The notes under the pieces are model-generated. The model was not told the origin of the DNA, did not search any database, and saw nothing but the letters and a program-made list of their open reading frames with translations. This document shows positions 7,637 to 33,032 of a stretch of DNA of 64,000 bases, piece after piece (position 1 is the stretch's first letter; each line of letters begins with the position of its first letter). Location: positions 1 through 64,000 of IMG/VR virus record IMGVR_UViG_3300033121_002338; one strand, given 5' to 3'. A program made the translations under genes and the position numbers. This stretch comes from a virus. Lineage: Duplodnaviria; Caudoviricetes.

Positions 7637-9097
7637 TCATAGGTCGATCACAAATCTCGTCTTCGTACCCCCATCGCATCTAGTATAACCATGCTTGGCG
7701 GCATAATCCACTTCACTCATCCCCATTTTCTTAGACTGGTTCCACAGAGTCTTCTTATGCATAATGAACCCATCGCGATCTCTGTAGAAGTAATCGGCCC
7801 TGATCACTCCATCTAATCTCCAGTTGCTCGCCTTGTAAATCGTCCCGGCGTGCCCGTAGGTGCTGTCGGCGAAAGTCATCAATTTCTTGACCGGCAGAAA
7901 CTGGTAGGTCCTGGCCAGGAACCAGGACACCAGATTATGCTTGCGGTAACAGGGATGCACCGCGAGTCTAGTCAATTCCATGATCTCTCGATACTTCACC
8001 CCCTGCTTCTTCGCTGATTCCACCCTGGTTGGGTAACAGTATCTGGCCACCCCGACGATCGTATCGCCGTCCATCGCCGCCACACTGATACCACTCCTGC
8101 CCCCTGAGGCGGTGTGGTGGTATTTGCTGAGGAATAGATTGGCTTTGCTGGCCTCGATCGTCTTGATCTCAAGCTGCGAGAATTTGTAGTCAACAGCTTG
8201 GGGTTGGCGGCCGAACCAGCCGGCGACCAGATGGTGGATACGTTCTGGCGATAGGAATTCGTGCTCCCAGAGTACCTTCAATTCATACTTGTCGGAGTGG
8301 TACCGCTCGATAAAGGTGGCCTTGGCCTGGTCCCTTGAGCGTTGGTTCTCGAATCTCTCGCCGTGCCAGTATTCACCGTGGACCTCGACGAGAATATCAC
8401 GCGGGGTGTGTGGGATGTGGAAGTCGAAAGGCCAGTGGCCGACGGTATGCTGGCGATCGTAGCCGATCCCCAAATTGTCAAGTATAGCTGCCAGATTCTC
8501 CTCTAGCTTGCTCTTGCTGTTCAGCAGGACCGCCTTCGAGTATTCCGGGCGGCTCCAGGCGGCTCTAACCCCGGTGCTGATCTTGAGCTTGGTGCCCGGC
8601 GAGCGGAGTTTCTCGACCAATTTGGCCCGGTACTGCTGGTCTGCCCAATTCTTCTTCGCGGCTGCTACTAATTTGCCCCGGTAGCCATCCCGGACGGCAT
8701 CTAGATTCTGCAGACGTTTGATCTCGTTCGACCGCATGGCGGCGACCGCCTGGGCGCGATAGGTGTTGTCGGTGTGGGCCGCCGTCACTCCGGCTACGAT
8801 CTTGGACCGATATTCATCGGATTGCCAGCGTTCGGCCGTGAGGCGCTGCTGAGTCTGGGCTTGTTTCTGGGCGTATTCGGGCCGCTCCCAGACCGACTTC
8901 TGCTTGCAACTGCGGCAGACGGGGTTGAATGGTTTGCCGTGGTTGATCCGGACTGAGCTGAGTTTGATGATCAATTCTGACTTGCATTCGGCGCAGCGGA
9001 CGATGACCAGGTTCTTCCCGACCGCCTGGGCCAGCCCGTAGCCGAACCTGGCCTCGGTTTCCGCCCAGTCAACCAGATGCACCTGAGCGTTATTCAT
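7637..9097 (-). CDS. Zn-finger/NUMOD3-like + Vsr/DUF559-like endonuclease + Mom-like GNAT fusion (nuclease B)
   Basis: CAEC...CRSC, W..xEYR repeats, FDF...VEVHGEYWH...RD, then FLSKYHH...ELTRLAVHP...NLVSWFLA...TFADSTYGHAGTIYKASNW. Confidence 0.8.
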   Translation of the reverse strand: MNNAQVHLVDWAETEARFGYGLAQAVGKNLVIVRCAECKSELIIKLSSVRINHGKPFNPVCRSCKQKSVWERPEYAQKQAQTQQRLTAERWQSDEYRSKIVAGVTAAHTDNTYRAQAVAAMRSNEIKRLQNLDAVRDGYRGKLVAAAKKNWADQQYRAKLVEKLRSPGTKLKISTGVRAAWSRPEYSKAVLLNSKSKLEENLAAILDNLGIGYDRQHTVGHWPFDFHIPHTPRDILVEVHGEYWHGERFENQRSRDQAKATFIERYHSDKYELKVLWEHEFLSPERIHHLVAGWFGRQPQAVDYKFSQLEIKTIEASKANLFLSKYHHTASGGRSGISVAAMDGDTIVGVARYCYPTRVESAKKQGVKYREIMELTRLAVHPCYRKHNLVSWFLARTYQFLPVKKLMTFADSTYGHAGTIYKASNWRLDGVIRADYFYRDRDGFIMHKKTLWNQSKKMGMSEVDYAAKHGYTRCDGGTKTRFVIDL

Positions 9098-9167
9098 GGA
9101 ACCCCAATACCAAAATTATGGTCTCTTCGTCCAATATATTTTGTCCAATTTCTTCAAGGAGAAGGAA

Positions 9168-9569
9168 ATGTCCGCTCAACCAGCGAACACCGACATCAAG
9201 ATCTACCGCAACGTGCGGGCGCAGCGGCAGCCGCTGTGGTTCGATAGTGTGGCTTCGCTCATCAAGCGGCTGCGTCCGCTGGTGATGGCCATCCCGGGCC
9301 ATGAGGTCCGCGTTGGTGTCATCACCCGCGACACCAGCACCAAGGATTTCAGCCCGTACATGGGTGAAGCACGCAGCAACGCCACCCGGGGTTTCCCGAT
9401 CGTGGTCGGTCTGAACAAGCAAGTGTCCTTCGCCACCGCGCAGACCCAACTGCCGGACGTGGATTTCGCGTTCCAGATCGGCAGCGATCGCTTCATCGCC
9501 AACACCACGGTCGGCCTCGACGGCGACCTGCACAGCGATGCCCGAGACCTCACCGCCGACCAACCGTAA
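9168..9569 (+). CDS. hypothetical protein (MSAQPANTDIK...), target of the duplication
   Basis: Strong RBS (aaggagaagga) before ATG 9168, and followed by a terminator. Confidence 0.75.
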   Translation: MSAQPANTDIKIYRNVRAQRQPLWFDSVASLIKRLRPLVMAIPGHEVRVGVITRDTSTKDFSPYMGEARSNATRGFPIVVGLNKQVSFATAQTQLPDVDFAFQIGSDRFIANTTVGLDGDLHSDARDLTADQP

Positions 9570-9588
9570 TAACGTTCTCAGAGCGGAG

Positions 9589-9618
9589 GAGAGGGGGCAA
9601 TTGCCCCCTCTCTTTTTT
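9589..9618 (+). terminator. intrinsic terminator
   Basis: 24-bp palindrome gagagggggcaattgccccctctc followed by a T run. Confidence 0.8.
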
Positions 9619-11101
9619 GTTGGTGATTGTGTTGCTTAGATCGAACATGGCCAATTCGGGAGCCGCAATGACCTGGAAATCCTACGATTGGCTAAACCAG
9701 AAATACAATGTCGAGATGATGTCATGGCCGGAGATCGCCAAACTAGTTGGGGTGTCCAGCACCATGGTCCGGCATGTGGCCAAGCAATTAGCAATTCCGT
9801 CGAGATCGAACCGGGAAGCCGCCCTACTACACAACCATCTGCCATTAGCAATCATACGCACGAAATACGAAAGCGGCAGTAGCATAGCCCGGCTGGCGGC
9901 GGAGTACGGAGTGGTGCCAAGTGTAATGAGGACCAATTTGTTGGCCGCCGGTGTCTCGCTGCGGACACGTGAAGTTAGCCGCCAACTATCGTTAGATCTG
10001 GCAGCCGATAAGCTGCCGAGGACAGTATGGCGTAATCGGGAATGGTTTGTTGAACATTACGCTGACCATTCCGTGCTGGAACTAATGGAAATCACTGGTT
10101 GGTCGAAGACCTATTTAATTGAAACTGCCAAGGAACTCAACATAAGTCTGCGGTCTTGTAGCGATGCTATAAAACTGAAATGGAACGATGACCAATACCG
10201 GCATAAACACGCGGAATATCTGAGCAACAATCCCAGAGTTAGCGGGCTGCAGCTGAAGTTTTATGACTTGTTGGTACAAGCCGGGATTGATTTTGAGCCG
10301 GAATCGGAGAAGACTAAAATTGGTTATTATAATTTCGATGCGCTGCTGCCGGCGTCAAAAATTCTGATCGATGTGCAAGGGACATATTTTCATTCGAAGA
10401 AAGCGGCCATCAGCCGCGATCGTCAGAAATTCGACTACATCAACAATTACCATCCCGATTACAGAATAGTGTATGTGTGGGAGTCTGACATAAATGACTG
10501 TCCGGAATTGGTTGTTCGCAACCTCCAGCTTAGAATCAACACGCCGCCATTGGCTGATTTTCGTTTCGAGGATGTGACAGTAGCGCCGGTCGGTTTTGAA
10601 GAGTGTAAGTCATTTCTGGACGCTTATCATTATATTGGCGGTAATAGGGGTGGATTAGCTGTGGGGGCCAAGCTTGGGAAAGAGATGGTCGGTGCTGTTG
10701 TTTACGCTCCGCCGCTTCGGCAGAATTTGAGTGGCTGCTATGGGACCGATGGCTTTCTAGAATTGTCCCGTTTGTGTGTCGCGCCGACGAGGCATAAGCC
10801 AAATTTTGCGTCGTGGCTCATAGCACGGTCATTGCGGCATGTTGATGCGCCGTTGGTTGTCGCGTATGCCGACAAGACTGCCGGGCACTGCGGTGGGGTG
10901 TATCGTGCTGCTAACTTCCAACTGCACCACGAAATAAAGCCGGACTACTGGTATGTGAACGATGACGGATATGTTCTGCACAAGAAAACTCTTTATAATC
11001 GGGCTGTGAGATCCCAGTTGAGAGAGGCCGAGTACGCCGTCAAATTCGGCTACCGGAAGCAATTCGGGCTACCCAAGTTGGCGTTCGTGTTCCGTAGATA
11101 A
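9617..11101 (+). CDS. HTH + Vsr/DUF559-like endonuclease + Mom-like GNAT fusion
   Basis: HTH-like repeats, FDALL...IDVQGTYFH...RDRQK, then FLDAYHY...ELSRLCV...NFASWLIA...AYADKTAGHCGGVYRAANF. The true start may be ATG 9647 or 9668. Confidence 0.8.
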   Translation: MLVIVLLRSNMANSGAAMTWKSYDWLNQKYNVEMMSWPEIAKLVGVSSTMVRHVAKQLAIPSRSNREAALLHNHLPLAIIRTKYESGSSIARLAAEYGVVPSVMRTNLLAAGVSLRTREVSRQLSLDLAADKLPRTVWRNREWFVEHYADHSVLELMEITGWSKTYLIETAKELNISLRSCSDAIKLKWNDDQYRHKHAEYLSNNPRVSGLQLKFYDLLVQAGIDFEPESEKTKIGYYNFDALLPASKILIDVQGTYFHSKKAAISRDRQKFDYINNYHPDYRIVYVWESDINDCPELVVRNLQLRINTPPLADFRFEDVTVAPVGFEECKSFLDAYHYIGGNRGGLAVGAKLGKEMVGAVVYAPPLRQNLSGCYGTDGFLELSRLCVAPTRHKPNFASWLIARSLRHVDAPLVVAYADKTAGHCGGVYRAANFQLHHEIKPDYWYVNDDGYVLHKKTLYNRAVRSQLREAEYAVKFGYRKQFGLPKLAFVFRR

Positions 11102-11130
11102 GCCGTTCGTTTTAACCAAGAGGTCACGAT

Positions 11131-13486: not shown

Positions 13487-15076
13487 CTACAGAACTTTAA
13501 CGAACCTCTGTAGTGGTTTACCAATTATCCGGTTCAACCCCATCTCGTCGGCATATTGAGACTCATTCATCTTGAGTCTTTGCGCCTGGTCCCACACTGA
13601 TTTCTTATGATAGCGATGTCCTTCTTGGTCAATGTACCAATAAGACTTGTTTGATAGACCGTCCAGTCGCCACCCGGCGGCCTTGTACACGGTTCCGGAA
13701 TGACCGGCCCCGGCGTCGGCGAATGATATGATAGTTGTGATCGAAGCCGGTATAAACTTCATGCTCCTGGCCAGCAACCATGACGCGAAATTCTTCTTTC
13801 GGTAGTTGGGATGGACACAAAATCTAATTAACTCAAGTGTCTCTTCAGGCTTTTTGCCTAAGCGTAGTGGGGTCTGTTGTCTCGTGCAGTTAGCAAAACA
13901 CAGCACAGCGATTAACTTCCCGTCGATCGTAGCGGCTACTGGCAGGCACGACCTCGATCTGCCTAGATAGTGGTACGACCACAAGAAACGGTCAGTCTCA
14001 GCCCGGTCGTGATCTCCATTGATGACCACGTCTTCGAGATTAAATGGGATTTGGCTCTGTGGTGTCCCTAATATTCCGTCCACAATTGAGGCGATTTTCT
14101 GTTGACCATAAAATTCAAACTCATAGATATAGGACAAATCGTAGTCTTTGGCCAGATAACGGTTATAGTAAGTGTTTTTTTGTTTGTCTCTGATGGCTGT
14201 CGCCGGCTGTCGATGCCAGTAGTCTCCCTGGCATTCGATTAAGACACCTCGCCCCCTCAATTCAAAATGAATGTCGAAAGTCCAAGGCCCCAGTTGCGTC
14301 GGCCCCGCCTCTATGCCGCGTTCGGCCAGCAGGCGCACCACTAGTTGTTCCAGGATTGAAACGGTGGTTCGCCGCGCCTGCGTTTGTGCTAACTTAGTTC
14401 TATAGGCCTCCTCCGCCCATTTTGCCCTGCGGGCTGCGTTGACCTTTGCTTTGTAGTCCGGATTCTCCCATAGTTTTTGGGTACGGCGCGAGATCGCCAA
14501 TCTCATCTCCGGGGTCCCCATTGCTGATTTCATGGCTTTGGATAGGCGTTCTTGGTATTCGATGGTTGATCGACCACTGCTCATAGCAGCCAACAGTCGG
14601 GCTTTTTGCTCACTATTTGACCATAGCTGTTGTAGTTTGCGTCTTGTTACCTCTCTCACTTGTGGGTCGTTGCGGTTCCTGGCCAGGATCTCAATAGCTT
14701 TGATAAGCGCTGCTGAGTCGTTTTGTAGTCGGGCTTTTTGAATCTCAGACTGTAGTGTTCTGTATTCTTGATTTCTTCTCTTGTTCAACTGTGCGGCTCT
14801 GAATATTGGGTCTGCCCACATTAACTGGCTGCTGATGCGTCTCTTTTCTTTGGAGTTGGCCAAGCCGATGGTTATTCCTCTGATGGCCTTTTGACGATGG
14901 GTAGCATCGGTCCATTTTACCTTCATAGAATCGCTGATCGATCTGCCGACGATGCCATGCTTCTTGGCCCATTTCCTAATCGTCGATATCGACACCAGAC
15001 AAATTTTAGCTATGTCGGCGTAGCTAAGGCCCGAGCTGTACTGCGCCTGGAAATCTGCCTTGTTTTTGTAGTCCAT
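13487..15076 (-). CDS. HTH/NUMOD3-like + Vsr/DUF559-like endonuclease + Mom-like GNAT fusion
   Basis: Likely start MDYKNK at 15076; FDIHF...IECQGDYWH...RDKQK; FLWSYHYLG...ELIRFCVHP...NFASWLLA...SFADAGAGHSGTVYKAAGW. Confidence 0.8.
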   Translation of the reverse strand: MDYKNKADFQAQYSSGLSYADIAKICLVSISTIRKWAKKHGIVGRSISDSMKVKWTDATHRQKAIRGITIGLANSKEKRRISSQLMWADPIFRAAQLNKRRNQEYRTLQSEIQKARLQNDSAALIKAIEILARNRNDPQVREVTRRKLQQLWSNSEQKARLLAAMSSGRSTIEYQERLSKAMKSAMGTPEMRLAISRRTQKLWENPDYKAKVNAARRAKWAEEAYRTKLAQTQARRTTVSILEQLVVRLLAERGIEAGPTQLGPWTFDIHFELRGRGVLIECQGDYWHRQPATAIRDKQKNTYYNRYLAKDYDLSYIYEFEFYGQQKIASIVDGILGTPQSQIPFNLEDVVINGDHDRAETDRFLWSYHYLGRSRSCLPVAATIDGKLIAVLCFANCTRQQTPLRLGKKPEETLELIRFCVHPNYRKKNFASWLLARSMKFIPASITTIISFADAGAGHSGTVYKAAGWRLDGLSNKSYWYIDQEGHRYHKKSVWDQAQRLKMNESQYADEMGLNRIIGKPLQRFVKVL

Positions 15077-15089
15077 AGGATATGTTCCA

Positions 15090-15884
15090 ATGGCAATTGT
15101 TGGACCAGCGGATCTCCCGAGCATTATGAAGGTTCGCTCGGAGCCGATGAAAAAATACGTACTAGCCAAGCTCGGCTACCCGCAGATCGACGTTGAACTC
15201 ACTGAAGACCAATTTGAGGTAATCTGGCGAGTGGCCGGCGACTTTATCGCCCAATACTTCCCGCGTGAACAAAAACTTGGGGTCTTTTGGACCCAACCTC
15301 TCAAATCCACCTACCCTTTGCCTAAAGATGCCTACTGGGTCCAGCAGGTAAGCTGGGACCCAGTGACGACCAGGATCGACGACGTGTTCGGGGCTGAATC
15401 ATACCTGTTCTGCTTCCCCGGCGGCACCAAACTGCTAACGACAGAAGGCCCGTTAGCTTGTGAGGACATCTATACCAAACAACTAGGTGATGTTGAGACC
15501 ACGGTGGTGACGCCATTTGGCCCGAGACCGGCCCGACTGCGATGGAATGCTGTCAGACAGCCGATTCAGGTTCTGAAAACCGAGACGGACCTACTGGCAT
15601 GCACACCCAACCATCCGGTCCACATCAGCGGGCAGATGCGTCAGGCTTTCCTGGGCTATCCTGACCTCAAACTGATGACCGACGACAATCGTGAAGTGAC
15701 TATCGTGGACCGCCAGCTAGTGACTACAGATGGGACCTGGTCGGTTGATTTGGGCGGTGGTTATTGTTACGTGAGTGGTCTCGGCAATGAATTCTATCTA
15801 GTTGAGGACGCTCCGTTCCCGGCTGAACCGCAAATGGCCGGCGTCCCAGACTCGGCGGAAGCCGTTTGCGAACATGTTGGCTGA
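15090..15884 (+). CDS. neck/head-completion protein (T4 gp13-like), N-terminal part followed by a mini-intein
   Basis: KYVLAKLGYPQIDVELTEDQ is typical of gp13-like proteins. The intein-like segment starts CFPGGT at 15411. Confidence 0.7.
   Translation: MAIVGPADLPSIMKVRSEPMKKYVLAKLGYPQIDVELTEDQFEVIWRVAGDFIAQYFPREQKLGVFWTQPLKSTYPLPKDAYWVQQVSWDPVTTRIDDVFGAESYLFCFPGGTKLLTTEGPLACEDIYTKQLGDVETTVVTPFGPRPARLRWNAVRQPIQVLKTETDLLACTPNHPVHISGQMRQAFLGYPDLKLMTDDNREVTIVDRQLVTTDGTWSVDLGGGYCYVSGLGNEFYLVEDAPFPAEPQMAGVPDSAEAVCEHVG
15411..15803 (+). mobile_element. mini-intein (HINT) lacking a canonical C-terminal HN/HQ
   Basis: Block A CFPGGTKLLTTEG and block B ACTPNHP. It ends ...GNEFYLV, overlapping the stop codon of the antisense nuclease. 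Confidence 0.65.
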
Positions 15885-17747: not shown

Positions 17748-18353
17748 AACCGCGAGTGGTGTGAGGTGGTTGAGGATCTGGGTGGTCGTGTCCCATCTTT
17801 GTTCTTAAATACTGGCGACCTCCCAATTTGCTTGAATGTAGGTAACATTAGTGGAATCCAGAATATCCTACTAGATTACCACTTATTGGCCGCATACAGG
17901 AAGTTCAGTCAGAAGATCCTGGGGACCGAGGGGCACTGGGAGGTTATTAACGAAGGTGAATCGACGGTCGATGGCGACTCGTTGAGCGCCAAGGATCAGT
18001 TGATCCGTCTTTATCCGACTCCGAAGGGGGCTTTCCCGGTCACGGTTTTGTACCTGCCGGTGGTCACTCATTTCAGGAGTCCGCAGGCCAGACAATTGGC
18101 CTATGATCTGATGGTGGCTGAGGCCAGGATCATGATTGGTTCGTCGCGGCGGAAGATCTCGGGTATGCCGACCCCCGATGGTGGCAGCATTAGCTACGAT
18201 GGGGCCGATATGGTTCAGGAGGGGGAACAGGCCCGGGAGAAGATTTTGGAGCAGGCGATAAATCTTGGGGAACCGCTGTCGTTCTGGCTCTGGAACCTTC
18301 TGGTGCCTTTGATGGGGATTCTGGCTGTTGGCCTTAAAGACACTGTATGCTAG
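17568..18353 (+). CDS. SprT-like HExxH segment fused in frame to the C-terminal part of the gp13-like neck protein
   Basis: CLAHEIAHLIVGHGDHNREW...LGG, then NVGNISGIQNILLDYHLL...IRLYPTP...PDGGSISYDG..MVQEG. Same reading frame as 15090..15884. Confidence 0.65.
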   Translation: MVVDWRRDVLIHLLPLAVDGAADLASGDIYLSRKLLADPARLRDCLAHEIAHLIVGHGDHNREWCEVVEDLGGRVPSLFLNTGDLPICLNVGNISGIQNILLDYHLLAAYRKFSQKILGTEGHWEVINEGESTVDGDSLSAKDQLIRLYPTPKGAFPVTVLYLPVVTHFRSPQARQLAYDLMVAEARIMIGSSRRKISGMPTPDGGSISYDGADMVQEGEQAREKILEQAINLGEPLSFWLWNLLVPLMGILAVGLKDTVC

Positions 18354-19191: not shown

Positions 19192-19207
19192 GCTTGTTGA
19201 TTTCCTG
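19165..19207. repeat. 43-bp direct repeat, copy 1
   Basis: tggcctaatcagaacaagaagaaatgagcttgttgatttcctg, identical to 22151-22193. Confidence 0.95.
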
Positions 19208-22150: not shown

Positions 22151-22193
22151 TGGCCTAATCAGAACAAGAAGAAATGAGCTTGTTGATTTCCTG
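22151..22193. repeat. 43-bp direct repeat, copy 2
   Basis: Identical to 19165-19207. Confidence 0.95.
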
Positions 22194-22364
22194 CCCCGAG
22201 TCCCAGAATTTCCTGTAACCGTGATTGAATAGGTTCTGGGCCTCGGTTGATTTCGGGTCGAACGACGACAGGAAATTAACCAATTTGTGTTTCTGGCTTG
22301 TCTTGTACAGCTCAACGAAACCCAACTTCTTATGGCCGGCTTGCGGCATTCGAAGCACGACCAC
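22155..22364 (-). CDS. small hypothetical protein sharing its C-terminus with 19169..19381
   Basis: Ends GQEINKLISSCSD. Confidence 0.4.
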   Translation of the reverse strand: MVVLRMPQAGHKKLGFVELYKTSQKHKLVNFLSSFDPKSTEAQNLFNHGYRKFWDSGQEINKLISSCSD

Positions 22365-25422: not shown

Positions 25423-25427
25423 TAACC

Positions 25428-25465
25428 AAAAGGCCACAGATTCCATAAGGGTCTGTGGCCTTTTT
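25428..25465 (+). terminator. intrinsic terminator after the sheath gene
   Basis: aaaaggccacaga...tctgtggccttttt. Confidence 0.75.
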
Positions 25466-25487
25466 CGTGTATTTCGATTAATGCACT

Positions 25488-27125
25488 GTGGATGTCAATG
25501 AGATGATCAACTGGCAGAAGACGGAAATCAAGTATGGAATTACCAACAATTCAGCCCGTTCCAAGTCCAAAGTCGTCGTCGAATGCGACGAATGTGGGGT
25601 TGAAGCCGATAGGATATACTGTTCGGTTAAACAGACACTTAAACGCACTGCTGGTCGGCTCTTCTGTCATAACTGTGCTACTAAAAGCCAACAATTTAAG
25701 GACGGTTGTGCGACACGGGCCGCCAAGAAATGGCAGGATCAGGAATATATTGCCAATAATTTGAGCGCAGTCCGATCCCCTGAGTATCGTGAACAGAAGC
25801 GGTCAGAATCGGCTGAACGTTGGTCGGATGCTGACTTTCGGGCCAAGATGACCACACACGAGATGATTGAGGCCAGACGCAGAAATAGCAGCATCGCGGC
25901 TAAGAACCTCTGGGCGCAACCTGAATACCGAGCTAAGTTGATTGGTAAGCTACGCGAGAGGATGATCGAGACCTGGCAGCGTCAGGACTATCGTACCCAC
26001 ATGTCGGCCATTCAATCTGGCAACACTAAATCGTTGTGGGAAGATGGCGCTTTCGCTGACTGTTTCGACGACGCCTTTAAGGAGAAAATGGCGGCCATCA
26101 ACAGGGAGATTCTTTCTCGACCCGAAGTGCTGGAGAAGTTGACTGAGGCTGGCAGAGCGAATTGGGAAAACGATGAGTATCGCCAGGCGGTGATCGCAGG
26201 AAATAAGGCGAGATGGCAGAATGAAGAACACCGCGAGCTTATGGCACAGATTAGATCCGGTCAACCACGTCAAAGCACACAACAGCAGTTATTGTATCAA
26301 TTTCTGGGGGATCTAGGTGTCACTTATTACCGTGAAGGCCAAGAGACTAAGATTGGCTACTTTGTCTTCGACTGCCTGGTGGAACATCAGGGACTGAAGA
26401 TCCTGATCGAGTGTCAGGGTGATTACTGGCATTCCTTACCAGGTTCAGCCAGCCGTGACAAAGCCAAGTTCACCTACGTTGACCGATACTTCCCAGAGTA
26501 CGAGGTCATGTACATCTGGGAACATGAATTCTATACCAAGGACCGGGTCCTAGACAGATTGAAATTGAGACTCGGCTTGTCGGTCGAAACTGTTGATTTC
26601 CGTTTCCAAGACATCCAAATTAAAGAGGTCTCGGCGGGTGAGGTGAAGTCGTTCCTGGACGCCTACCACTACATCGGTAAAGGTAGAGGTGGTAAGACCT
26701 ATGGGGCTTACCTGGGAGATCTGCTGGTAGCCTGTGTCGTGTTCAGCCCGCCACTCCGGCAGAACATGGGGGCGTTCGGCGAATTCAGAGAGTTATCTAG
26801 ATGCTGTATTCACCCGTCTTACCACCGCAAGAACTTCGCTAGCTGGTTTATCAGCCGGTCGTTGCGGCTGGTCGGCGGGAAGGTGGTGGCCTATGCGGAT
26901 AGTACGGTTGGTCACACTGGGGCCATCTATAAGGCCTCGAACTTCAAACTTCATCATGAGGTGGACCCGGATTATTGGTATGTGGATGGCGATGGTTTTG
27001 TGATGCATAAGCGGACGCTATATGGCCGTGCGGTCAAGATGGGGATGGCCGAGTCGGAGTTTGTTGCCGCTTACGGGTACGTCAAAAAGTTCGGCGGCCC
27101 TAAGAGATGTTTTGTGTATGGCTGA
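25488..27125 (+). CDS. Zn-finger/NUMOD3-like + Vsr/DUF559-like endonuclease + Mom-like GNAT fusion
   Basis: CDEC...CHNC; FVFDCLV...IECQGDYWH...RDKAK; FLDAYHYIG...ELSRCCIHP...NFASWFIS...AYADSTVGHTGAIYKASNF. Confidence 0.85.
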   Translation: MDVNEMINWQKTEIKYGITNNSARSKSKVVVECDECGVEADRIYCSVKQTLKRTAGRLFCHNCATKSQQFKDGCATRAAKKWQDQEYIANNLSAVRSPEYREQKRSESAERWSDADFRAKMTTHEMIEARRRNSSIAAKNLWAQPEYRAKLIGKLRERMIETWQRQDYRTHMSAIQSGNTKSLWEDGAFADCFDDAFKEKMAAINREILSRPEVLEKLTEAGRANWENDEYRQAVIAGNKARWQNEEHRELMAQIRSGQPRQSTQQQLLYQFLGDLGVTYYREGQETKIGYFVFDCLVEHQGLKILIECQGDYWHSLPGSASRDKAKFTYVDRYFPEYEVMYIWEHEFYTKDRVLDRLKLRLGLSVETVDFRFQDIQIKEVSAGEVKSFLDAYHYIGKGRGGKTYGAYLGDLLVACVVFSPPLRQNMGAFGEFRELSRCCIHPSYHRKNFASWFISRSLRLVGGKVVAYADSTVGHTGAIYKASNFKLHHEVDPDYWYVDGDGFVMHKRTLYGRAVKMGMAESEFVAAYGYVKKFGGPKRCFVYG

Positions 27126-27592
27126 TGATCGTCCACGGGTGTGTCGCAATGGGTTTCTGTGAATTGGTCGCTCATGGCTTGGTTGCTAGTCTCGAAGCCG
27201 CGGTCCCCTGTGTGGTGGAGGCTCCGTCTGTTGAGCCAAGCGACTGGGCCAATGTTCACATTCAAGGGCTGGGCAATGAATCAGCCACAATCACAGTTTG
27301 GAATGGACGATTGTTACTGGCTAAATTCAATAATTCGCTTCGTTATCGGCAGATACGGCGCGACTGTGCCTATAATTGTTGCGGTCGGATTTTGAATAAG
27401 CCGCTGCACGATCCGGAGGCGATCGATTGGATTATTGCTCAGGTGATTCGTGTGATTTTGAAAGACCATTCTTGTTTATATAATTTCGCGACTGATGCTG
27501 CCAGGCGGCAGTTGCTGTGGGAAACATGGCGCTTGGACCAGAGAAATTTTGCGTTTGGTCGTCCGCACTACTTGCATGAGGGGTTGTTTTGA
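27107..27592 (+). CDS. hypothetical protein
   Basis: 161-aa ORF coupled to the next gene; the start is uncertain. Confidence 0.5.
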   Translation: MFCVWLMIVHGCVAMGFCELVAHGLVASLEAAVPCVVEAPSVEPSDWANVHIQGLGNESATITVWNGRLLLAKFNNSLRYRQIRRDCAYNCCGRILNKPLHDPEAIDWIIAQVIRVILKDHSCLYNFATDAARRQLLWETWRLDQRNFAFGRPHYLHEGLF

Positions 27593-28359
27593 ACTGGATT
27601 GATCAGATCGGGCAGCATGAATGCAAGGTCTTCTCCCAGAACGGCGAGGACGGCGTCATCGAATTTATCTTCGCCAACATTGGCACCACCAATAAACGCT
27701 ACGTCGAATTCGGTTGCGACGGCGGCCACGAGTGTCAGGCCCGTTACCTTACTGAACAGTGTGGTTGGTCTGGGTTGCTGATGGATGGGGGTGATTGGGG
27801 GCCGTCAGTCACGAAAGAATTTATTACCGCCGAGAACGTCAACGACATCTTTATTAAGTATGGTGTTCCGAGAGAACCCGACCTGCTCTCCATCGACATC
27901 GACGGCAACGACTACTGGGTTCGTAAGGCCCTGATGGATTACCGGCCGCGCGTTATCGTTCATGACTACAATGGTCTGTTCAAGCCGCCCGTTTCCATCA
28001 CGATTGCCTATGATCCACAGTTCGTGTGGTCCGGTAACGACTACGCTACCGCGAGTTTGGCGGCTTTTGTTAAGCTCAACAAGACTATGGGCTATACCTT
28101 AGTCTATTGCGAAAAAAATGGGGTGAATGCTTTCTTTATCCGCGACGACCTAATCAAGGGGCTCAAAATCCCAGCTATGGAGGACCTGTGGCGACCGCTG
28201 TTGATCCCGCCACGTGACCCGGTCCATGAGTGGCGAAAGCGTTGGGTTGAGGTGGTGCTAGAGGGAGGGGTTCTGGTTGAACGGGTTTTGGAGCCCACTC
28301 CCTGGTTGGTCGATCATCCGTTTAGAAAGTCTATCCCTGCTGATCGTCTATTGCGATAA
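27589..28359 (+). CDS. FkbM-like SAM-dependent methyltransferase
   Basis: VFSQNGEDG...YVEFGC...GWSGLLMDG...FITAENVN...DLLSIDIDGNDYW...RPRVIV. Confidence 0.8.
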   Translation: MNWIDQIGQHECKVFSQNGEDGVIEFIFANIGTTNKRYVEFGCDGGHECQARYLTEQCGWSGLLMDGGDWGPSVTKEFITAENVNDIFIKYGVPREPDLLSIDIDGNDYWVRKALMDYRPRVIVHDYNGLFKPPVSITIAYDPQFVWSGNDYATASLAAFVKLNKTMGYTLVYCEKNGVNAFFIRDDLIKGLKIPAMEDLWRPLLIPPRDPVHEWRKRWVEVVLEGGVLVERVLEPTPWLVDHPFRKSIPADRLLR

Positions 28360-28396
28360 TTGGGGTGCAATCCAAATTTGGATTGCACCCCAATTA
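28357..28396. terminator. perfect 40-bp palindrome between convergent genes, probably a bidirectional terminator
   Basis: taattggggtgcaatccaaa|tttggattgcaccccaatta. Confidence 0.7.
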
Positions 28397-28398
28397 GT

Positions 28399-29424
28399 TT
28401 ATTCCTTGAGGGTGATGCCGAAGGCGGCGTAGTCGTCGCCGAAGGTGGTGGCGGTGATCTCTTCGCTTGGTGTGTTCACGCCGATTTTGTAAACGACCCA
28501 GAAGCCGATGTCGGTGGAGTCGATGGAGCCGTCGTAGCGGTTGATGGCTGTGACATAGCCGTCCGCCGGTACCAGGTGGTCGTCGAAGTTGTTCAGTTGC
28601 ATGAAGGCGCCGACCGCCATGTCGCCGTTGGTGTTTACCGTGATTGCGCCGGTCGTCCATGTTGTGGGGCCGGCACCTTCGCTGGTTGAATTGCTGTTGT
28701 AGCCGTCGTGTGGTGGGTTGGAGTTAGCACCGAAACATTCCAGGATGCCCAGGACAGCCGACGAGTCGCCGGAAGTGGTGACAGTGATCGTCCCTTCGTT
28801 GCCGCTACTACCCACTCTCTTATACCACAGTGACAGGCTTCCTTCGTGGACATTGAGGAAACGGCGGTAACTGCCCACTTGGGTGAAGGCGCCGTCTGCA
28901 TTGCTTACGGAAACAGTGATATTTGAGTAGGAACTCTTGGTGGCCACGAATGCCAGGAGCAGCGCCCCTTCGGTCGGTTCCGCGATGCTGTGGTTGATGA
29001 TACCAGGGCCGAACGACTTGCCATAACTGCTGGCCTGTCCAGGCTCCACCAGTGGGTCCTCGTCTGAGGGCGGTGGCGGGGGCGGCGGTGGTGGCGGTGG
29101 CGGTGGCGGGGGCGGTGGTGGGGGCGGTGGTGGGGGCGGTGGCGCCGGCGGGGGCGGTGGCGCCGGCGGGGGCGGGGGTGGTGCTATGACTTCTGATTCG
29201 GTGAAGGTTGGGCCGCTGTCGCGGTTATAGCCGAGTAAGTGCAAGCGGTGAGTTTCTAGGAACTGTTGGATGGTTCGGTAGATGCTGCTGGTCTTGTCTA
29301 TGGTGTCGGCCCACATTCGCACCTGGTTCATGTTGACCCGGTGCTTGAATGTGATTTCCGCGGCTGTGTGGCCGTTTTCGATGTCAGCTATGATGGCTGC
29401 CAGGATACTCAGTTGGTTGGCCAT
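28399..29424 (-). CDS. poly-proline-linker protein with a C-terminal beta-rich domain
   Basis: 341 aa: a short helical N-domain, a tract of about 35 Pro, then a Thr/Ser/Gly-rich domain resembling phage tail or fibre domains. Confidence 0.65.
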   Translation of the reverse strand: MANQLSILAAIIADIENGHTAAEITFKHRVNMNQVRMWADTIDKTSSIYRTIQQFLETHRLHLLGYNRDSGPTFTESEVIAPPPPPPAPPPPPAPPPPPPPPPPPPPPPPPPPPPPPPPSDEDPLVEPGQASSYGKSFGPGIINHSIAEPTEGALLLAFVATKSSYSNITVSVSNADGAFTQVGSYRRFLNVHEGSLSLWYKRVGSSGNEGTITVTTSGDSSAVLGILECFGANSNPPHDGYNSNSTSEGAGPTTWTTGAITVNTNGDMAVGAFMQLNNFDDHLVPADGYVTAINRYDGSIDSTDIGFWVVYKIGVNTPSEEITATTFGDDYAAFGITLKE

Positions 29425-29437
29425 AGCTCTGTGCCAT

Positions 29438-29461
29438 TGGTGGTGGTGGTGGTGGTGGTGG
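29438..29461. repeat. (TGG)8 microsatellite
   Basis: Eight perfect TGG units 13 bp upstream of the 29424 start. Confidence 0.85.
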
Positions 29462-29500
29462 TGCTAACTTGTAACTTTGCACAGAGAACAGAAAGCAATG

Positions 29501-29866
29501 TTAGGATTGCTGTTGGAGGGTTGCTCTGGAGTCTAGGTAAGCGTGTAGTTCGAAGACGAAGTTGCGCGGGATGTGCATATAGTTGTCGTTTACGATCGCG
29601 ACCACCGCTTGTCGCACACTGTCGAAACAATTTGGATCGGCATAGTCTATGGTGCTGTGAGCGATTCTTCTGCCATCGTAGTAGATTATGATAGTAGGCA
29701 AGTGGATATCATATCTCCACTCGTCGAAATAGATACTGATGCTGAGTGTCGTTCTGCCGAGCGGAACGATAATTCCGTATTTCTCGATTGTGTATGCGAG
29801 GTTTTCCTTGTCTAATTCTTCACCCACTCCATGGGCGAGAGCCGCAATGAGTTGTTCTTCGCTCAT
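29501..29866 (-). CDS. hypothetical protein
   Basis: 121-aa ORF overlapping the end of the upstream nuclease region. Confidence 0.55.
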   Translation of the reverse strand: MSEEQLIAALAHGVGEELDKENLAYTIEKYGIIVPLGRTTLSISIYFDEWRYDIHLPTIIIYYDGRRIAHSTIDYADPNCFDSVRQAVVAIVNDNYMHIPRNFVFELHAYLDSRATLQQQS

Positions 29867-29872
29867 CTTCGC

Positions 29873-31408
29873 TCATTTTCCATGGTAGAGGAAACACAGT
29901 TTTGGTCCTCCCCATTTCTTGATGTACCCATACTCGGCCGCGAATTCTGACTCGGTGAGTTTTAGATTCACGGCCCGGTTGTATAGGGTTTTCTTGTGCA
30001 TAACGTAGCCATCCTTGTCCGCATACCAATAATCGGACTGGGTGGTGTGGTGTAGCTTGAAATTGGAGGCCTTATAGACCGTCCCCAGATGTCCGACGGT
30101 GGTGTCGGCGAAAGCGACGACGACTTGATGGTCCTTTACTAATCTAGCTAGCCACCAACTGAGCAGATTCTTTTTGTGGTAATTCGGATGGACGCACAGT
30201 CTGGCTAATTCGACGGCTCCGTTTGGAAATTGGTGCGCCATATTCTGCCGCGGCAACGGCCCGAAACGGCTAACCGCGATTAGTGTATCGCCGAGCCATA
30301 GACCATAATCGGAGCCCCCACGCGAAGCTCCCAGATAGTGATACTTGGTTAGGAATTCGTTTGATAGATTGCGGTCTATCCGGGCGTGTTGCAACTGGCC
30401 GAATTGATAATCAACCGTGTCCGGCTTGATGCCTAACTTGGTCTTCAGACGATCCAGAACGCGATCTTTGGCTGAGAATTCGTGTTCCCAGATATACATG
30501 ATCTCGTATTCCGGGAAGTAGCGGTTTATGTAGGTGAATTTCGCCCGATCATTCCTTATGGTTTTGGGTAGTGAATGCCAATAATCGCCCTGGCATTCGA
30601 TCAGCAACGATCGCCCGTGTGCAGTAGCAATTTTACAATCGAAGACATAAAATCCGACGGTTGTGTCTGGGCCTTCTCGAACGTAATTGACTCCTAGGTT
30701 GTCGAGATATTCGTAAAGTGATACTTGTAGACTGCTGATGCGTGGTTGCTTGCTCCTCCCAACCGCCCATTTTGCCCTCTGGGCTTCGTCTGCCCACAAC
30801 TCAGTCATTGTCCGCGATATGGCAATCTTAATCCGTTCTCTGTAGTCGGCATCTTGCCAGCGCCGGTTATTCTCGACACCGACTGCAACTCGTCGTTCTG
30901 CAGTGAATGAGTCTTTGATGGACTCGGACACCAATTTCTGGTATTCTTCTCTGTCCCATAATTCAGATGACAGTTTGGCCCGATTTTCCCTGGCCTGTGG
31001 GTCAGCCCAGAATTTCAAGAGTCGTTCGACAATCTCTTTGCGGTTATCCAAACACCAATCACGTAGCTTGCCGACCATCGCTTCACGGTATGCGCCGCCA
31101 GCCCATCTCTCTCGCATTATGATTGAATGGGCCGCTCTGCGTTCTGGGGTCCATGCCTTTGTGATCCCACTGCTTACAGCAGCGGCGTACTCTTGGTCTT
31201 GCCACAATCGGCGTGAGTCGGCTGAGAGATCTCTGGTGGAGGAACGGTCGTAGCTTCCCCTCGCTCCGGCTTCTTTTCTGCTGCATCCCCCACATTTGAA
31301 GATGCCGTGGTTCCGTTTACGGTTGGCGTTGGCACTGTAGGAACGAATCTTGATTGGAGTTTGACAGAGGTCACAGCCGATGATGACGAATGGCCCGTTG
31401 TGTGACAT
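29873..31408 (-). CDS. Zn-finger/NUMOD3-like + Vsr/DUF559-like endonuclease + Mom-like GNAT fusion
   Basis: CDLC...CGGC; YVFDCKI...IECQGDYWH...NDRAK; FLTKYHYLG...ELARLCVHP...NLLSWWLA...AFADTTVGHLGTVYKASNF. Confidence 0.85.
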   Translation of the reverse strand: MSHNGPFVIIGCDLCQTPIKIRSYSANANRKRNHGIFKCGGCSRKEAGARGSYDRSSTRDLSADSRRLWQDQEYAAAVSSGITKAWTPERRAAHSIIMRERWAGGAYREAMVGKLRDWCLDNRKEIVERLLKFWADPQARENRAKLSSELWDREEYQKLVSESIKDSFTAERRVAVGVENNRRWQDADYRERIKIAISRTMTELWADEAQRAKWAVGRSKQPRISSLQVSLYEYLDNLGVNYVREGPDTTVGFYVFDCKIATAHGRSLLIECQGDYWHSLPKTIRNDRAKFTYINRYFPEYEIMYIWEHEFSAKDRVLDRLKTKLGIKPDTVDYQFGQLQHARIDRNLSNEFLTKYHYLGASRGGSDYGLWLGDTLIAVSRFGPLPRQNMAHQFPNGAVELARLCVHPNYHKKNLLSWWLARLVKDHQVVVAFADTTVGHLGTVYKASNFKLHHTTQSDYWYADKDGYVMHKKTLYNRAVNLKLTESEFAAEYGYIKKWGGPKLCFLYHGK

Positions 31409-31473
31409 CTCTGGCTGCCCGTCAAGGAAAAACTATTGTAGGATTTTTACCCCAATACATGGCTGGAGGCTGT

Positions 31474-31548
31474 ATGCCAGGGTTCAACATCATGCCGTAT
31501 GGCGGCGGCTATTCAGCCCAAGGCCCGTCAAATACGGCTGAGACGAGG
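31474..31548 (+). pseudogene. orphan first 25 codons of the tail tube gene
   Basis: MPGFNIMPYGGGYSAQGPSNTAETR with its own RBS (ggagg). 25/25 aa identical to 33088-33162, with 14 nucleotide differences, all synonymous. Confidence 0.95.
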
Positions 31549-31652
31549 GGATCTTCCAAATTGATGTTGAAGAAAGCGAAGTTGTGCGGCTTGTCCGCCC
31601 AGTTGAGCAGCACTTGTGTGCTTCCGTTATTCATACCCCGGTATAATTTCTT

Positions 31653-33032
31653 CTAGCTCTTCTGGTGTAGGAAACACAGTTTTGGTCCTCCCCATTTCTT
31701 GATGTACCCATATTTGTCAGCGAATTCGGCCTCGGTGAGTTTCAGGTTTACAGCACGGTTATAGAGGGTCTTCTTGTGCATCACGTAGCCATCTTTATCA
31801 ACATACCAATAGTCAGACTGGGTGGTGTGGTGTAGTTTGAAATTAGCTGCCTTGTAGACAGTGCCCAGATGCCCCACTGTGGTGTCGGCGAAGGCCACAA
31901 TGCTCCTATAGCCAGACATCTTGATCGCACGCGAAACCAGCCAACTTGCGAAATTATGCTTGTGGTAGGAAGGATGGATGCATAATCTGGATAACTCGAT
32001 CGCGTCGGCTGGGAGTGCTTGATGGTTCTGCCGAATTAGTCGGCTAAAGAGCACGCACCCAATCACTTGTTGTTGGTGTCTGGCTACAATCGCTCGGCCA
32101 CCACGTGAACCACCAATATAGTGGTATTGATCCAGGAATGATCTCACTTCCTTGCTGTCAGCCTCAGCAACTTCGATCTCCTTGAACGAGAAGGTGACAG
32201 TTGGGATAGCGATGCCGAGTTTTAGTTTCAGCCTATCGAGGACACGGTCTTTGGTGCCGAATTCGTGCTCCCAGATATACATGATTTCGTGGTCTGGGAA
32301 GTATCGATTGATGTAGGTGAATTTGGCCCGGTCCCTAGCTGCAGCGCCTGGTAATGAATGCCAATAATTACCTTGGCATTCGATGAGGAGTTTTCGGTCG
32401 TTAGGGCGTTTGACTAGGCAGTCGAATACATAATGGCCGATCGCAGTTGCTGGACCTTCCCGTTCGTAACTTACTCCCAGATCGCCTAGGAATGAGTATA
32501 ACGCTATCTGCAGGCCTGAAATGCTCGGTTGGTTGGCTCTGATTACGGCCATCCGCATTCGGTATTCATCATCGGCAAAGCGTTTTCTGGCTGCCTCGCC
32601 AACAGCTAATCTATAATTCGGGTCTTCGAGGTACCGCTGGTGAAGACCAGCGGAGATTCTAGCACGCGCCTCTAGACTGAGCAAGGCCTCAGTTACTCCG
32701 GCTGAGACTCTTTTCTTGTACCCATCGTCTTTCCATAATTCGCTGGTCCTGGTCGATTGTGCTGCTCTATATTCATCGGTCGTGTTGGCGGCCGTAGATG
32801 TGGCAGTGATCTTAGCTCTGAATTCTGGCCGGCTCCACAATGCCTTGCTCTGTGCCGATCTCTTCTCTGGGGTGTGGCTAAATTTGCCAGCCTTGCCCGC
32901 CTTGATGGTGCAGCAGTGGTGGCAGGTGTAGACTCCATTGCGTTTTACGTTCGCGTTGTAAGTGTCGCCTCTGACTTCCCCCGACCATCCGCAAGCACAA
33001 TTCGCCGGCTTCTTCTGTTTGGATGGTCTCAC
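31653..33032 (-). CDS. Zn-finger/NUMOD3-like + Vsr/DUF559-like endonuclease + Mom-like GNAT fusion
   Basis: Likely GTG start at 33032; CACG...CHHC; YVFDCLV...IECQGNYWH...RDRAK; FLDQYHYIG...ELSRLCIHP...NFASWLVS...AFADTTVGHLG. Confidence 0.85.
   Translation of the reverse strand: MRPSKQKKPANCACGWSGEVRGDTYNANVKRNGVYTCHHCCTIKAGKAGKFSHTPEKRSAQSKALWSRPEFRAKITATSTAANTTDEYRAAQSTRTSELWKDDGYKKRVSAGVTEALLSLEARARISAGLHQRYLEDPNYRLAVGEAARKRFADDEYRMRMAVIRANQPSISGLQIALYSFLGDLGVSYEREGPATAIGHYVFDCLVKRPNDRKLLIECQGNYWHSLPGAAARDRAKFTYINRYFPDHEIMYIWEHEFGTKDRVLDRLKLKLGIAIPTVTFSFKEIEVAEADSKEVRSFLDQYHYIGGSRGGRAIVARHQQQVIGCVLFSRLIRQNHQALPADAIELSRLCIHPSYHKHNFASWLVSRAIKMSGYRSIVAFADTTVGHLGTVYKAANFKLHHTTQSDYWYVDKDGYVMHKKTLYNRAVNLKLTEAEFADKYGYIKKWGGPKLCFLHQKS

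Follow-up and report, generated by a model that had tools for sequence, protein, structure and literature searches.

Nuclease-Mom fusion genes on the contig

The 64-kb window analysed here, the whole stretch of DNA that was examined in detail, belongs to an 83-kb virus contig (a fragment of an uncultured jumbo phage) and carries seven intact genes and one broken gene of a single family. Two further intact copies lie outside the window on the same contig (G000:C1:72123-73574, minus strand, and 81048-82505, plus strand), bringing the total for the contig to ten copies, nine intact and one broken. The counts within the window, which an earlier note on this DNA had put at seven and one, were borne out by the open reading frames (ORFs) and by alignment. 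Each intact gene encodes a variable N-terminal DNA-binding part, followed by an EDxHD/Vsr-like nuclease and then by a Mom-like GNAT domain. ORFs were present at 7637-9097 (-), 9617-11101 (+), 13487-15169 (-), 25488-27125 (+), 29873-31408 (-) and 31653-33107 (-); the start codons of several genes are probably located downstream of the start of the longest ORF (at about 15076 for the 13487 copy, about 17516 for the 15798 copy and 33032 for the 31653 copy). The family members in the window, named by their first coordinate, and the mapped domains of one of them are as follows.

694-1731, minus strand: broken copy with Zn ribbon, helical repeats and most of the EDxHD nuclease, without the Mom domain
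7637-9097, minus strand: intact copy, 486 aa, with an N-terminal Zn ribbon and His at Mom position Y59
9617-11101, plus strand: intact, with an HTH-type N-terminus; inserted between two genes that are direct neighbours in the related phage G005
13487-15076, minus strand: intact copy with an HTH-type N-terminus, 13 bp (start-to-start) from a neck-like gene beginning at 15090
15798-17516 (longest ORF 15798-17747), minus strand: Hef-clade copy with HTH, repeats, Zn ribbon, nuclease and a diverged Mom-like GNAT domain
25488-27125, plus strand: intact copy, 545 aa, immediately 3' of the tail sheath gene, with kin at the same address in other phages
29873-31408, minus strand: intact copy, 511 aa, its start lying opposite an orphan duplicate of the tube gene start
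31653-33032, minus strand: intact copy, 459 aa, the query for the structure model, with its domains mapped
33032-32937, minus strand: Zn ribbon of the 31653 copy
32921-32532, minus strand: helical repeats of the 31653 copy
32519-32208, minus strand: EDxHD nuclease of the 31653 copy
32186-31656, minus strand: Mom-like GNAT domain of the 31653 copy

Pairwise identity among the copies on the contig was only 23-50%, whereas their core showed 66-74% identity to proteins of other contigs. The 7637 copy and the gene at about 9168 lie start to start.

The nuclease domain and the N-terminal modules

Pfam searches gave weak Vsr/MTES_1575 nuclease matches just upstream of the Mom domain in six ORFs, and a profile built from the copies matched the homing endonuclease I-Bth0305I (3r3p) with an E-value of 4.5e-7. 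In an AlphaFold model of the 459-aa copy (pLDDT 87.8), residues 172-275 superimposed on 3r3p with a Z-score of 12.1 and an rmsd of 2.7 Å (94 of 98 residues aligned), so that sequence profile and fold agreed on the EDxHD/Vsr-like assignment that had been proposed from motifs. The motifs F-D, I-E-x-x-G-x-Y-W-H and D-x-x-K were found in all copies, the 9617 copy having Asp instead of the motif Glu and Phe instead of Trp, and the motif residues were at least 90% conserved among 130 family members. The composite catalytic motif, Asp (Vsr D51), Glu, His (Vsr H69) and Asp (Vsr D97), was present. Homology and predicted fold together show the central domain to have the I-Bth0305I nuclease fold with every putative catalytic residue (D204, E218, H225 and D234 in the 459-aa copy).

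The N-terminal parts consist of a Zn ribbon or an HTH (weak HTH matches) together with one to five W-x3-[DE]-[YF]-R helices. While the Zn finger and HTH types named in the earlier note were recovered, its NUMOD3-like type was not confirmed: a Pfam search of the N-terminal parts (E 0.1) returned no NUMOD match, Zn ribbons, HTH and helices occupying the equivalent position. By homology and modelled fold, the variable modules are shown to be positioned for binding what would be a long DNA target.

The 15798 copy, previously singled out as more distant, gave no Pfam Mom match, yet it aligned with the other copies over its entire length and matched phrog_3339 ('homing endonuclease') and phrog_559 (homing/HNH endonuclease) with E-values of 1.7e-79 and 6e-74, both domains being spanned; the remaining six copies in the window matched the same families with E-values of 7e-10 to 5e-25. 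A tblastn search with the 15798 copy retrieved 411 cultured-phage records at 972 places, reaching genes annotated as Hef, and identity to Hef-type genes was 33-38% over both domains. By these alignments the 15798 copy is a member of the long-known 'Hef-like homing endonuclease' family, Hef itself having been known since 2005. The other eight of the nine intact copies fall in a sister clade of the Hef clade (here the main clade) that still scores as Pfam Mom, and no full-length match to its copies was found among 50,697 phage records.

The Mom-like domain

The Pfam Mom family (PF25680) matched the C-terminal ~170 residues of six ORFs in the window (51-70 bits, E-values 1e-13 to 4e-19) and eight of the nine intact copies on the contig at 51-74 bits, against a gathering cut-off of 27.1. 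A profile of the copies matched Mu Mom (8bv8) with an E-value of 1.2e-9, and 8bv8 was the top match of the structure model among 48,161 chains (Z-score 14.4) as well as the first match in Foldseek (E-value 2.3e-8). Profile search and structure prediction, with Mu Mom as the best structural match, thus upheld the suggestion that the C-terminal domain is Mom/GNAT-like, and the quoted motifs (E..G.YWH...D in the nuclease; HY, EL.RL, N..SW, AD and GH.G.Y.A.N in the Mom-like domain) proved to be real conserved columns. A two-helix (HTH-like) insertion is present in the model (helices 420-429 and 434-441, between strands 417-419 and 443-447); in Mu Mom, the substrate of which is double-stranded DNA with a flipped adenine, the HTH-like insertion is used for DNA binding.

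In Mu Mom, R111, S124 and R151 are essential, S124A kills activity and mutation of D149 greatly reduces it (Karambelkar 2020; Silva et al. 2026, PMC13219725), and according to the revised chemistry glycine is moved from Gly-tRNAGly onto N6-adenine (Silva et al. 2026, PMC13219725). Pocket residues were counted in 116 sampled members of each clade (Mu Mom numbering). The equivalents of H58, R111 and Y159 were invariant (R111 in 116/116 members of each clade), S124 was kept in 107/116 main-clade and 97/116 Hef-clade members, and D149 in 116/116 and 102/116, respectively. The W181 and Y59 equivalents were kept in the main clade, Y59 being Leu or Ile in the Hef clade. At the R151 position, Thr was found in 116/116 main-clade members and in seven copies on this contig, Gly in the 13487 copy, and Arg in 102/116 Hef-clade members and the 15798 copy. 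At the position of the dimer residue W48, both clades varied (S, K, A, T and others). A G-G-A-S-K-L-L segment in the Hef clade is similar to the GNAT CoA-binding loop and gave a weak GCN5 match; the 15798 copy shows the substitutions Y59L and S124G, and its ORF is still open. On balance, catalytic activity of the domain on DNA is judged slightly more likely than not. All nine diverged paralogues retain the domain, suggesting a role tied to each enzyme rather than one shared function.

Insertion sites and scars

In comparison with the related phages G001 and G005, each copy has been inserted at an intergenic position whose flanking genes lie next to each other in the relatives. The family is absent from a complete 408-kb relative and is represented by 0, 1, 1 and 2 copies in four others, compared with ten in 83 kb here, and the copies are scattered across the family tree (eight label changes for nine copies). 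Three lineages hold fixed genomic addresses in other phages, namely downstream of the sheath gene, at the tube gene start and downstream of the prohead protease gene. The gap that holds the 13487 copy measures 30 bp in G005, and the sheath and tube genes are adjacent and 20-45 bp apart in nearly all relatives. The islands, the cassette and the duplicated gene starts are listed below; the islands and the cassette have no assigned strand.

662-9095: 8.4-kb island with the broken copy and the 7637 copy at its ends, the flanking genes being adjacent in G005
1732-7051: 5.3-kb cassette of virion-type genes, which splits the broken copy in frame
7052-7066, minus strand: the five opening codons (MNNAQ) of the broken copy, orphaned 5.3 kb from the remainder of the gene
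25423-33087: 7.6-kb island between the sheath and tube genes, with three nuclease genes and four or five ORFs of unknown function
31474-31548, plus strand: orphan duplicate of the 25 opening codons of the tail tube gene, encoding the same 25 residues as 33088-33162
33088-33162, plus strand: the 25 codons with which the working tail tube gene begins, the second duplicate

The two copies of the tube gene start differ at 14 of 75 nt, all of them silent. In a second scar, the duplicated block comprises a nuclease start, a spacer and the start of the neighbouring gene; positions 7052-7173 and 9083-9205 are 89% identical. The broken copy is a paralogue of the 7637 gene (72.6% nucleotide and 69% amino acid identity, 936-1656 against 8290-9007), and because homology stops at 936, neither the end of the nuclease nor any of the Mom domain is present. 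The cassette that splits it begins with a 71-nt copy of the 3' end of the sheath gene (1734-1804 against 25318-25388, 90%), and its ORF at 1917-2327 shows 83% identity to the G005 ORF located just after the sheath gene. In line with the earlier proposal of a selfish module, the insertions, fixed addresses and scars make it a well supported conclusion of the genome comparison that the copies behave as selfish, mobile genes.

A homing model and the role of the Mom-like domain

These observations make it highly probable that the family consists of free-standing genes for homing endonucleases from the Hef / EDxHD (Vsr-like) lineage, which would have repeatedly invaded intergenic sites beside conserved virion genes of a jumbo myovirus. 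Comparative genomics suggests that, during co-infection with a phage lacking the gene, the enzyme would cleave the adjacent conserved gene within or close to its end; judged from position, the cut regions may be the 3' end of the sheath gene, the 5' end of the tube gene and the genes for prohead protease, portal and neck. Repair by recombination would then transfer the nuclease gene, together with some adjoining sequence, to the cut genome. The Mom-like GNAT domain at the C-terminus could act in cis as an integral part of the enzyme, not as a general genome protector, and might engage a flipped adenine within the enzyme's own target. Several features do not sit easily with the combination of homing and Mom activity: Thr for R151 in the main clade, Leu or Ile for Y59 in the Hef clade, the loss of W48, Gly at S124 in the 15798 copy, where Mu Mom does not tolerate Ala, and an orientation relative to the target gene that varies among kin (P0002 runs parallel to the tube gene, the 31653 copy points away from it).

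It is quite conceivable that the Mom-like domain is catalytically silent and has been retained for DNA binding, base flipping or positioning in a protein that only cuts. The replacement of R151 and W48 equivalents in the main clade and of Y59 in the Hef clade points in this direction, as do the open ORF of the 15798 copy despite S124G and the retention of the HTH-like insertion that binds DNA in Mu Mom. The conservation of the pocket, with H58, R111 and Y159 invariant and D149 and S124 nearly so in more than 230 diverged sequences, nevertheless exceeds the apparent need of a binding role, and the CoA-loop-like segment of the Hef clade also argues for a catalytic function.

Free-standing homing nucleases leave their target intact on insertion, so some self-immunity is needed. 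The Mom-like domain might supply it by modifying adenine in the nuclease's own site, so that the carrier would be immune and an unmodified rival would be cut, a single chain resembling Type IIG enzymes serving homing. We regard this cut-and-protect arrangement as possible, with a likelihood of about one in three. It is in keeping with a Mom-like pocket that is highly conserved in both clades, with the retention of the domain in nine diverged paralogues and hundreds of database relatives, and with the action of Mu Mom on flipped adenine in double-stranded DNA. Against it stand Thr in place of the essential R151 across the main clade and the consideration that a nuclease and modifier in one chain would meet self and rival DNA alike in co-infection. 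Moreover, the 14 silent differences between the tube-start copies make a sequence-based immunity available; ordinary target immunity based on sequence, or simple divergence between donor and recipient, would account for them, and modification is not needed. Given a conserved pocket but Thr at R151 throughout the main clade, cut and protect is no more than plausible, and it is doubtful that activity of the Mom domain gives the carrier genome immunity to its own nuclease. Only tentatively can the domain of Hef-type homing endonucleases be taken for an active adenine modifier, possibly aminoacyl-tRNA-dependent, that would mark its own target for epigenetic immunity of the carrier.

A weapon similar to restriction-modification, in which momylation would shield the whole phage genome and the fused nuclease would degrade host or superinfecting-phage DNA without homing, was predicted for jumbo-phage Mom-REase fusions (Iyer et al. 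2021) and agrees with the conservation of both active sites, but is improbable, as one copy would suffice genome-wide, yet nine intact, diverged copies carry different DNA-binding heads, the complete 408-kb genome and close relatives have none, the copies occupy fixed addresses beside conserved genes and left duplicated gene starts behind, and the family includes Hef, cited in two papers as a homing endonuclease of phage U5.

Comparison with known systems

The homing endonuclease reading preferred here concerns a fusion that has been described before. Contrary to the earlier note, to which no functional description was known, the jumbo-phage Mom-REase (Iyer, Anantharaman, Krishnan, Burroughs, Aravind 2021, Viruses 13:63) has the same architecture, the same phage setting and the idea that modification protects while the nuclease attacks, and the 15798 copy belongs to the known Hef-like family. 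The finding itself is therefore not new, since architecture and cut-and-protect idea are already in print; distinctive here are the density of copies and the nested insertion record. The published reading is a restriction-modification-like conflict system, whereas the present evidence favours site-specific homing elements from the Hef lineage.

The Hef-like set comprises genes of phage U5, F-LimIII, VII, VIII and X of Dickeya phage LIMEstone1, and genes of Campylobacter phage NCTC12673 and Klebsiella phages RaK2/K64-1. As here, they combine a nuclease and a C-terminal GNAT-like core with varying N-terminal DNA-binding modules and are free-standing, intergenic and placed beside conserved genes, in LIMEstone1 one of them beside the tail tube gene. 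They reach up to 11 copies in ~133 kb, less dense than the ten in 83 kb here, and differ from the eight intact sister-clade copies, which keep Y59 and W181 and have Thr for R151. Few selfish genes of large phages are as common as the Hef-type nuclease genes, almost all of which carry a conserved Mom relative and which mark borders of genetic exchange between phages. Were the domain to modify the nuclease's target, this would be a new way for free-standing homing nucleases to spare their own genome, and the family would be the first among homing endonucleases to carry an antidote of its own, as a mobile single-chain analogue of Type IIG enzymes in hundreds of phages. Since the chemistry of Mom was solved only in 2026 (glycine from charged tRNA), the question can be addressed with published assays, and the contig offers a test bed with nine diverged intact copies, putative target regions beside named virion genes and empty sites in relatives.

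Mu Mom (PF25680; PDB 8BV8) has the same GNAT fold, the last strands of which are likewise separated by a helical insertion, and its H58, Y59, R111, S124, D149, Y159 and W181 have conserved equivalents in the main clade. It exists on its own as a 231-aa dimer, is produced late in infection from a single copy per genome and modifies ~15% of adenines, whereas the domain here is fused to a nuclease, occurs in nine diverged copies and lacks the basic C-terminal tail, W48 and, in the main clade, R151. I-Bth0305I is the prototype of the EDxHD (Vsr-like) homing endonucleases (PDB 3R3P), and Hef has been placed in the same family (Taylor et al. 2011, PMC3239194). Its nuclease fold, catalytic residues and DNA-binding region N-terminal to the nuclease match the copies here; unlike them it is intron-encoded, 266 aa long and ends with the nuclease, without Mom/GNAT, and its N-terminal motifs are NUMOD2 and HTH instead of Zn ribbons and W-x3-[DE]-[YF]-R helices.

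Fractured genes with split inteins and Vsr-like endonuclease genes were reported by Dassa et al. 2009, as summarised in PMC3239194. The 15798 copy likewise sits between the two halves of a fractured gene, the N-half of which ends in a Hint/intein-like domain. Unlike in the fractured genes of that summary, a SprT-like HExxH segment stands ahead of the C-half in place of a recognisable C-intein, and a terminal His-Asn was not seen.

Structure and number of nuclease-Mom genes

All seven intact genes that the earlier note had reported (copies are named here by their start) were present in the sequence, and the motifs quoted for them sat in a core of about 290 residues over which all seven ORFs could be aligned. 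Six of them matched the Pfam family Mom (PF25680) with 51-70 bits (cut-off 27.1), had weak Vsr or MTES_1575 nuclease matches directly before the Mom part and showed phrog_3339 and phrog_559 matches spanning both domains. The seventh ORF (15798-17747) had no Pfam Mom match and matched phrog_3339, 'homing endonuclease', at 1.7e-79 across the whole core. The single broken gene expected besides these seven was found by profile search at 694-1731, and the same search over the whole contig revealed two intact copies outside the window (72123-73574 and 81048-82505). In total, ten copies make up approximately 18% of the DNA of the 83-kb contig, the highest copy density seen in this analysis.

Positions of the broken copy and of the duplicated tube gene starts
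694-1731, minus strand: broken copy, 72.6% DNA identity with the 7637 copy over 936-1656; homology ends at 936
7052-7066: first five codons of the broken copy, separated from the remainder by a 5.3-kb cassette
31474-31548: orphan copy of the tube gene start (first 25 codons)
33088-33162: start of the working tube gene (first 25 codons)

Since homology ends at 936, the broken copy lacks the nuclease end and the entire Mom domain. At this point lie two perfect 38-bp direct repeats (826-927, 26 nt apart), each of which contains a GC-rich hairpin and ends in ATTGAAAG; they had no Rfam match and may represent either a CRISPR-like mini-array or a terminator that was duplicated. A degenerate array of approximately 40-bp repeats (7197-7620, core CTGC.GG....GCTAAGGA, period about 73 bp) is located directly downstream of the 7637 copy.

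The proposed fusion of a nuclease to a Mom domain was borne out by profile and structure prediction. A profile of the copies matched the solved structures of Mu Mom (8bv8, E 1.2e-9) and of the I-Bth0305I catalytic domain (3r3p, E 4.5e-7). The AlphaFold model of the 459-residue 31653 copy, built from 49 relatives (mean pLDDT 87.8), has four parts: residues 1-32 form a Zn ribbon, 38-167 seven helices, 172-275 an alpha/beta domain and 283-459 a GNAT domain. Several Cys and His residues of this copy (C351, H353, H388, H402, C453) are invariant in its clade and may form a metal site. When compared with 48,161 representative chains, its best overall match was Mu Mom (Z 14.4, rmsd 3.0 A over 149 residues), which was also ranked top by Foldseek, while for the nuclease part 94 of 98 residues could be aligned to 3r3p (Z 12.1, rmsd 2.7 A). 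The residues that define the EDxHD class, namely Asp (equivalent to Vsr D51), Glu, His (Vsr H69) and Asp (Vsr D97), are found in every copy and are at least 90% conserved among 130 relatives; in the 459-residue copy they include D204 and H225, and in its Mom part R349 and S363 are the equivalents of R111 and S124 of Mu Mom. The NUMOD3-like repeats suggested for the N-terminal part had no support in Pfam; a GerD identity of the same helices, indicated by weak matches in relatives, was rejected as probably just a matter of composition.

Acquisition of the copies and scars of insertion

The 83,341-bp contig (about 23% complete according to CheckV) codes for a tail sheath, three tail-tube paralogues, baseplate proteins, a portal and a prohead protease, and related contigs reach 408 kb, indicating that it is a piece of a T4-like jumbo myovirus. 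A megablast search of 50,697 phage records, with 20 kb of window sequence as the query, yielded no cultured close relative at the DNA level. No group I or II introns or other RNA families were detected by Rfam at gathering thresholds across the whole 83 kb, and no tRNA genes were found; an intron-encoded origin of the copies was therefore ruled out.

The first tube gene follows the sheath gene within 20-45 bp in almost every one of some 30 related contigs. Here, the gap is 7.6 kb and holds three nuclease genes and several ORFs of unknown function. Comparison with the closest relative (G005, sheath 83% identical) and with a complete 408-kb relative (G001) showed that the 9617, 13487 and 15798 copies are simple insertions between neighbouring genes, and the genes flanking an 8.4-kb island, whose edges are the broken copy and the 7637 copy, are adjacent in G005. 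The family is represented by 0 (the complete G001), 0, 1, 1 and 2 copies in relatives and by 10 here. We rejected recent within-genome duplication as an explanation for this expansion, as the copies are only 23-50% identical to each other and scattered over the tree: their cores are 66-74% identical to proteins on other contigs, and on a tree of 241 cores eight label changes are required for the nine copies. This low mutual identity and scatter show that the expansion arose by repeated acquisition. The sole recent events are the broken/7637 pair and a tract of 236 nt shared by the tandem 29873 and 31653 copies, the 3' ends of which (29883-30118 and 31663-31898) are 85% identical, against 48% for the whole proteins, probably as a result of recent gene conversion.

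In two other phages, kin of the 25488 copy occupy the position immediately behind the sheath gene. Those of the 29873 and 31653 copies lie at the tube gene start, and one relative of the 81048 copy immediately follows the prohead protease gene, the same place as on this contig. One fixed address per lineage is what site-specific homing predicts. Seven of the ten copies are oriented with their start towards that of a conserved gene, the two starts being separated by a 13-70 bp spacer. The two tube gene starts, each facing the start of a different nuclease gene, encode identical residues although 14 of 75 nt differ, every change being silent. A block spanning the nuclease start (MNNAQ), the spacer and the beginning of the following gene is likewise duplicated, at 7052-7173 and 9083-9205 (89%). 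These duplicated starts look like products of homing in which a piece of the donor's neighbouring gene was carried along with the nuclease gene. The copies are most likely homing endonucleases: the N-terminal modules would bind a long site, the EDxHD domain would cut the allele of a co-infecting phage without the gene, and subsequent repair would copy the nuclease gene in.

The cassette within the broken copy (1732-7051) contains virion-type genes, including an Ig-like or head-decoration-like ORF (3916-5202) and a further ORF (5521-6939). It opens with a copy of the sheath 3' end (71 nt), and the first of its ORFs shares 83% identity with the one following the sheath gene in G005. The whole resembles a cassette from between sheath and tube genes that was copied into the start of a nuclease gene. 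The cargo ORFs of the two islands mostly had no match in Pfam or PHROGs.

Two clades and the Hef lineage

The 15798 copy matched 972 places in 411 phage records, many of them annotated 'Hef-like homing endonuclease', with both the nuclease and the C-terminal domain covered. Phage Hef proteins were already placed in the EDxHD family by Taylor et al. 2011. Papers that cite it describe the Hef of phage U5 as a homing endonuclease targeting nrdB. Hef has been known since 2005 and the EDxHD class of its nuclease since 2011. The remaining eight intact copies make up a sister clade (main clade) with at least 290 metagenome clusters, often on contigs of 350-390 kb. No full-length match to this clade was found among cultured phage records, the 31653 copy giving only four partial tblastn matches, all within the Mom part, and the main clade is so far metagenomic. 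As the comparison of clade profiles was partly circular, with the 15798 copy in both alignments, phrog matches and residue scoring were used instead. Fusions of this kind, for which the earlier note knew of no functional description, were reported by Iyer et al. 2021. The contribution of this contig lies in a copy density higher than any other seen (Campylobacter phages have up to 11 Hef-like copies per about 133 kb), a nested insertion record and clear empty-site comparisons.

Role of the Mom-like domain

Mu Mom transfers glycine from Gly-tRNAGly to N6 of a flipped adenine in double-stranded DNA (Silva et al. 2026). Residues H58, Y59, R111, S124, D149, R151, Y159, W48 and W181 are important, with R111, S124 and R151 being essential. 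We scored these positions in 116 relatives per clade.

Mu Mom residues in the main clade and the Hef clade
H58 and R111: invariant; invariant
D149: Asp 116/116; Asp 102/116
Y159: Tyr 116/116; Tyr 115/116
S124: Ser 107/116; Ser 97/116
Y59: Tyr 116/116; Leu or Ile
W181: Trp 116/116; mostly Phe
R151: Thr 116/116; Arg 102/116
W48: lost; lost

The full Mu Mom set is thus present in neither clade, and individual copies deviate further (Y59H in the 7637 copy, Y59L and S124G in the 15798 copy). The helical insertion required by Mu Mom is seen in the AlphaFold model, and the Hef clade has a G-G-A-S-K-L-L segment resembling the CoA loop of ordinary GNATs, with a weak GCN5 match. In both clades the pocket is strongly constrained, a pattern that suggests catalysis, and we lean slightly towards a Mom-like domain that is active on DNA. 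A silent binding module, for which the incomplete residue set would speak and the constrained pocket would not, has a reasonable though smaller chance of being correct. More doubtful is the cut-and-protect function put forward in the earlier note. Nine diverged copies retain the domain and copy-free relatives are viable, which ties its role to each nuclease and not to protection of the whole genome. The published restriction-modification reading (Iyer et al. 2021) fits poorly with the copy number and the fixed addresses. The role of the Mom-like part can now be tested with the 2026 assays.

Split neck-like gene, portal intein and other features

A neck-like gene that is a single ORF in G001 is split here (15090-18353), with the Hef-clade 15798 copy between its halves on the opposite strand. 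The N-half ends AESYLF and continues into a Hint or mini-intein-like domain, which, judging from motifs read by eye, starts C-F-P-G-G-T and has a T-P-N-H block with no terminal His-Asn seen; Pfam detected no intein domain in either half. The C-half starts NVGNISG and is preceded by some 86 residues that contain an SprT-like HExxH motif (Pfam E 7.5e-5). In G005 the same gene is split (L042-L044, reverse strand, about 50,100-51,200 of a 60-kb reverse-complemented stretch) and the gap is occupied by another ORF, on the plus strand, that combines an HTH with a PD-(D/E)XK-like D...E-V-K motif, indicating that the same site is used by unrelated nuclease genes.

The start of one nuclease-Mom gene faces that of the portal gene (T4 gp20-like, L002:9617-12751, contig 73617-76751), which harbors an intein containing a LAGLIDADG endonuclease; the match to the G001 portal is confined to residues 599-1044. 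Downstream of the broken copy, the minus strand of 1-700 is A+C-rich and of low complexity (AT skew -0.30 over 1-2000), and ORF 155-661 within this stretch has a 56% identical homologue in G005. Finally, upstream of the sheath gene, two intergenic regions share a 47-nt direct repeat (98% identical; 19165-19211 and 22151-22197).
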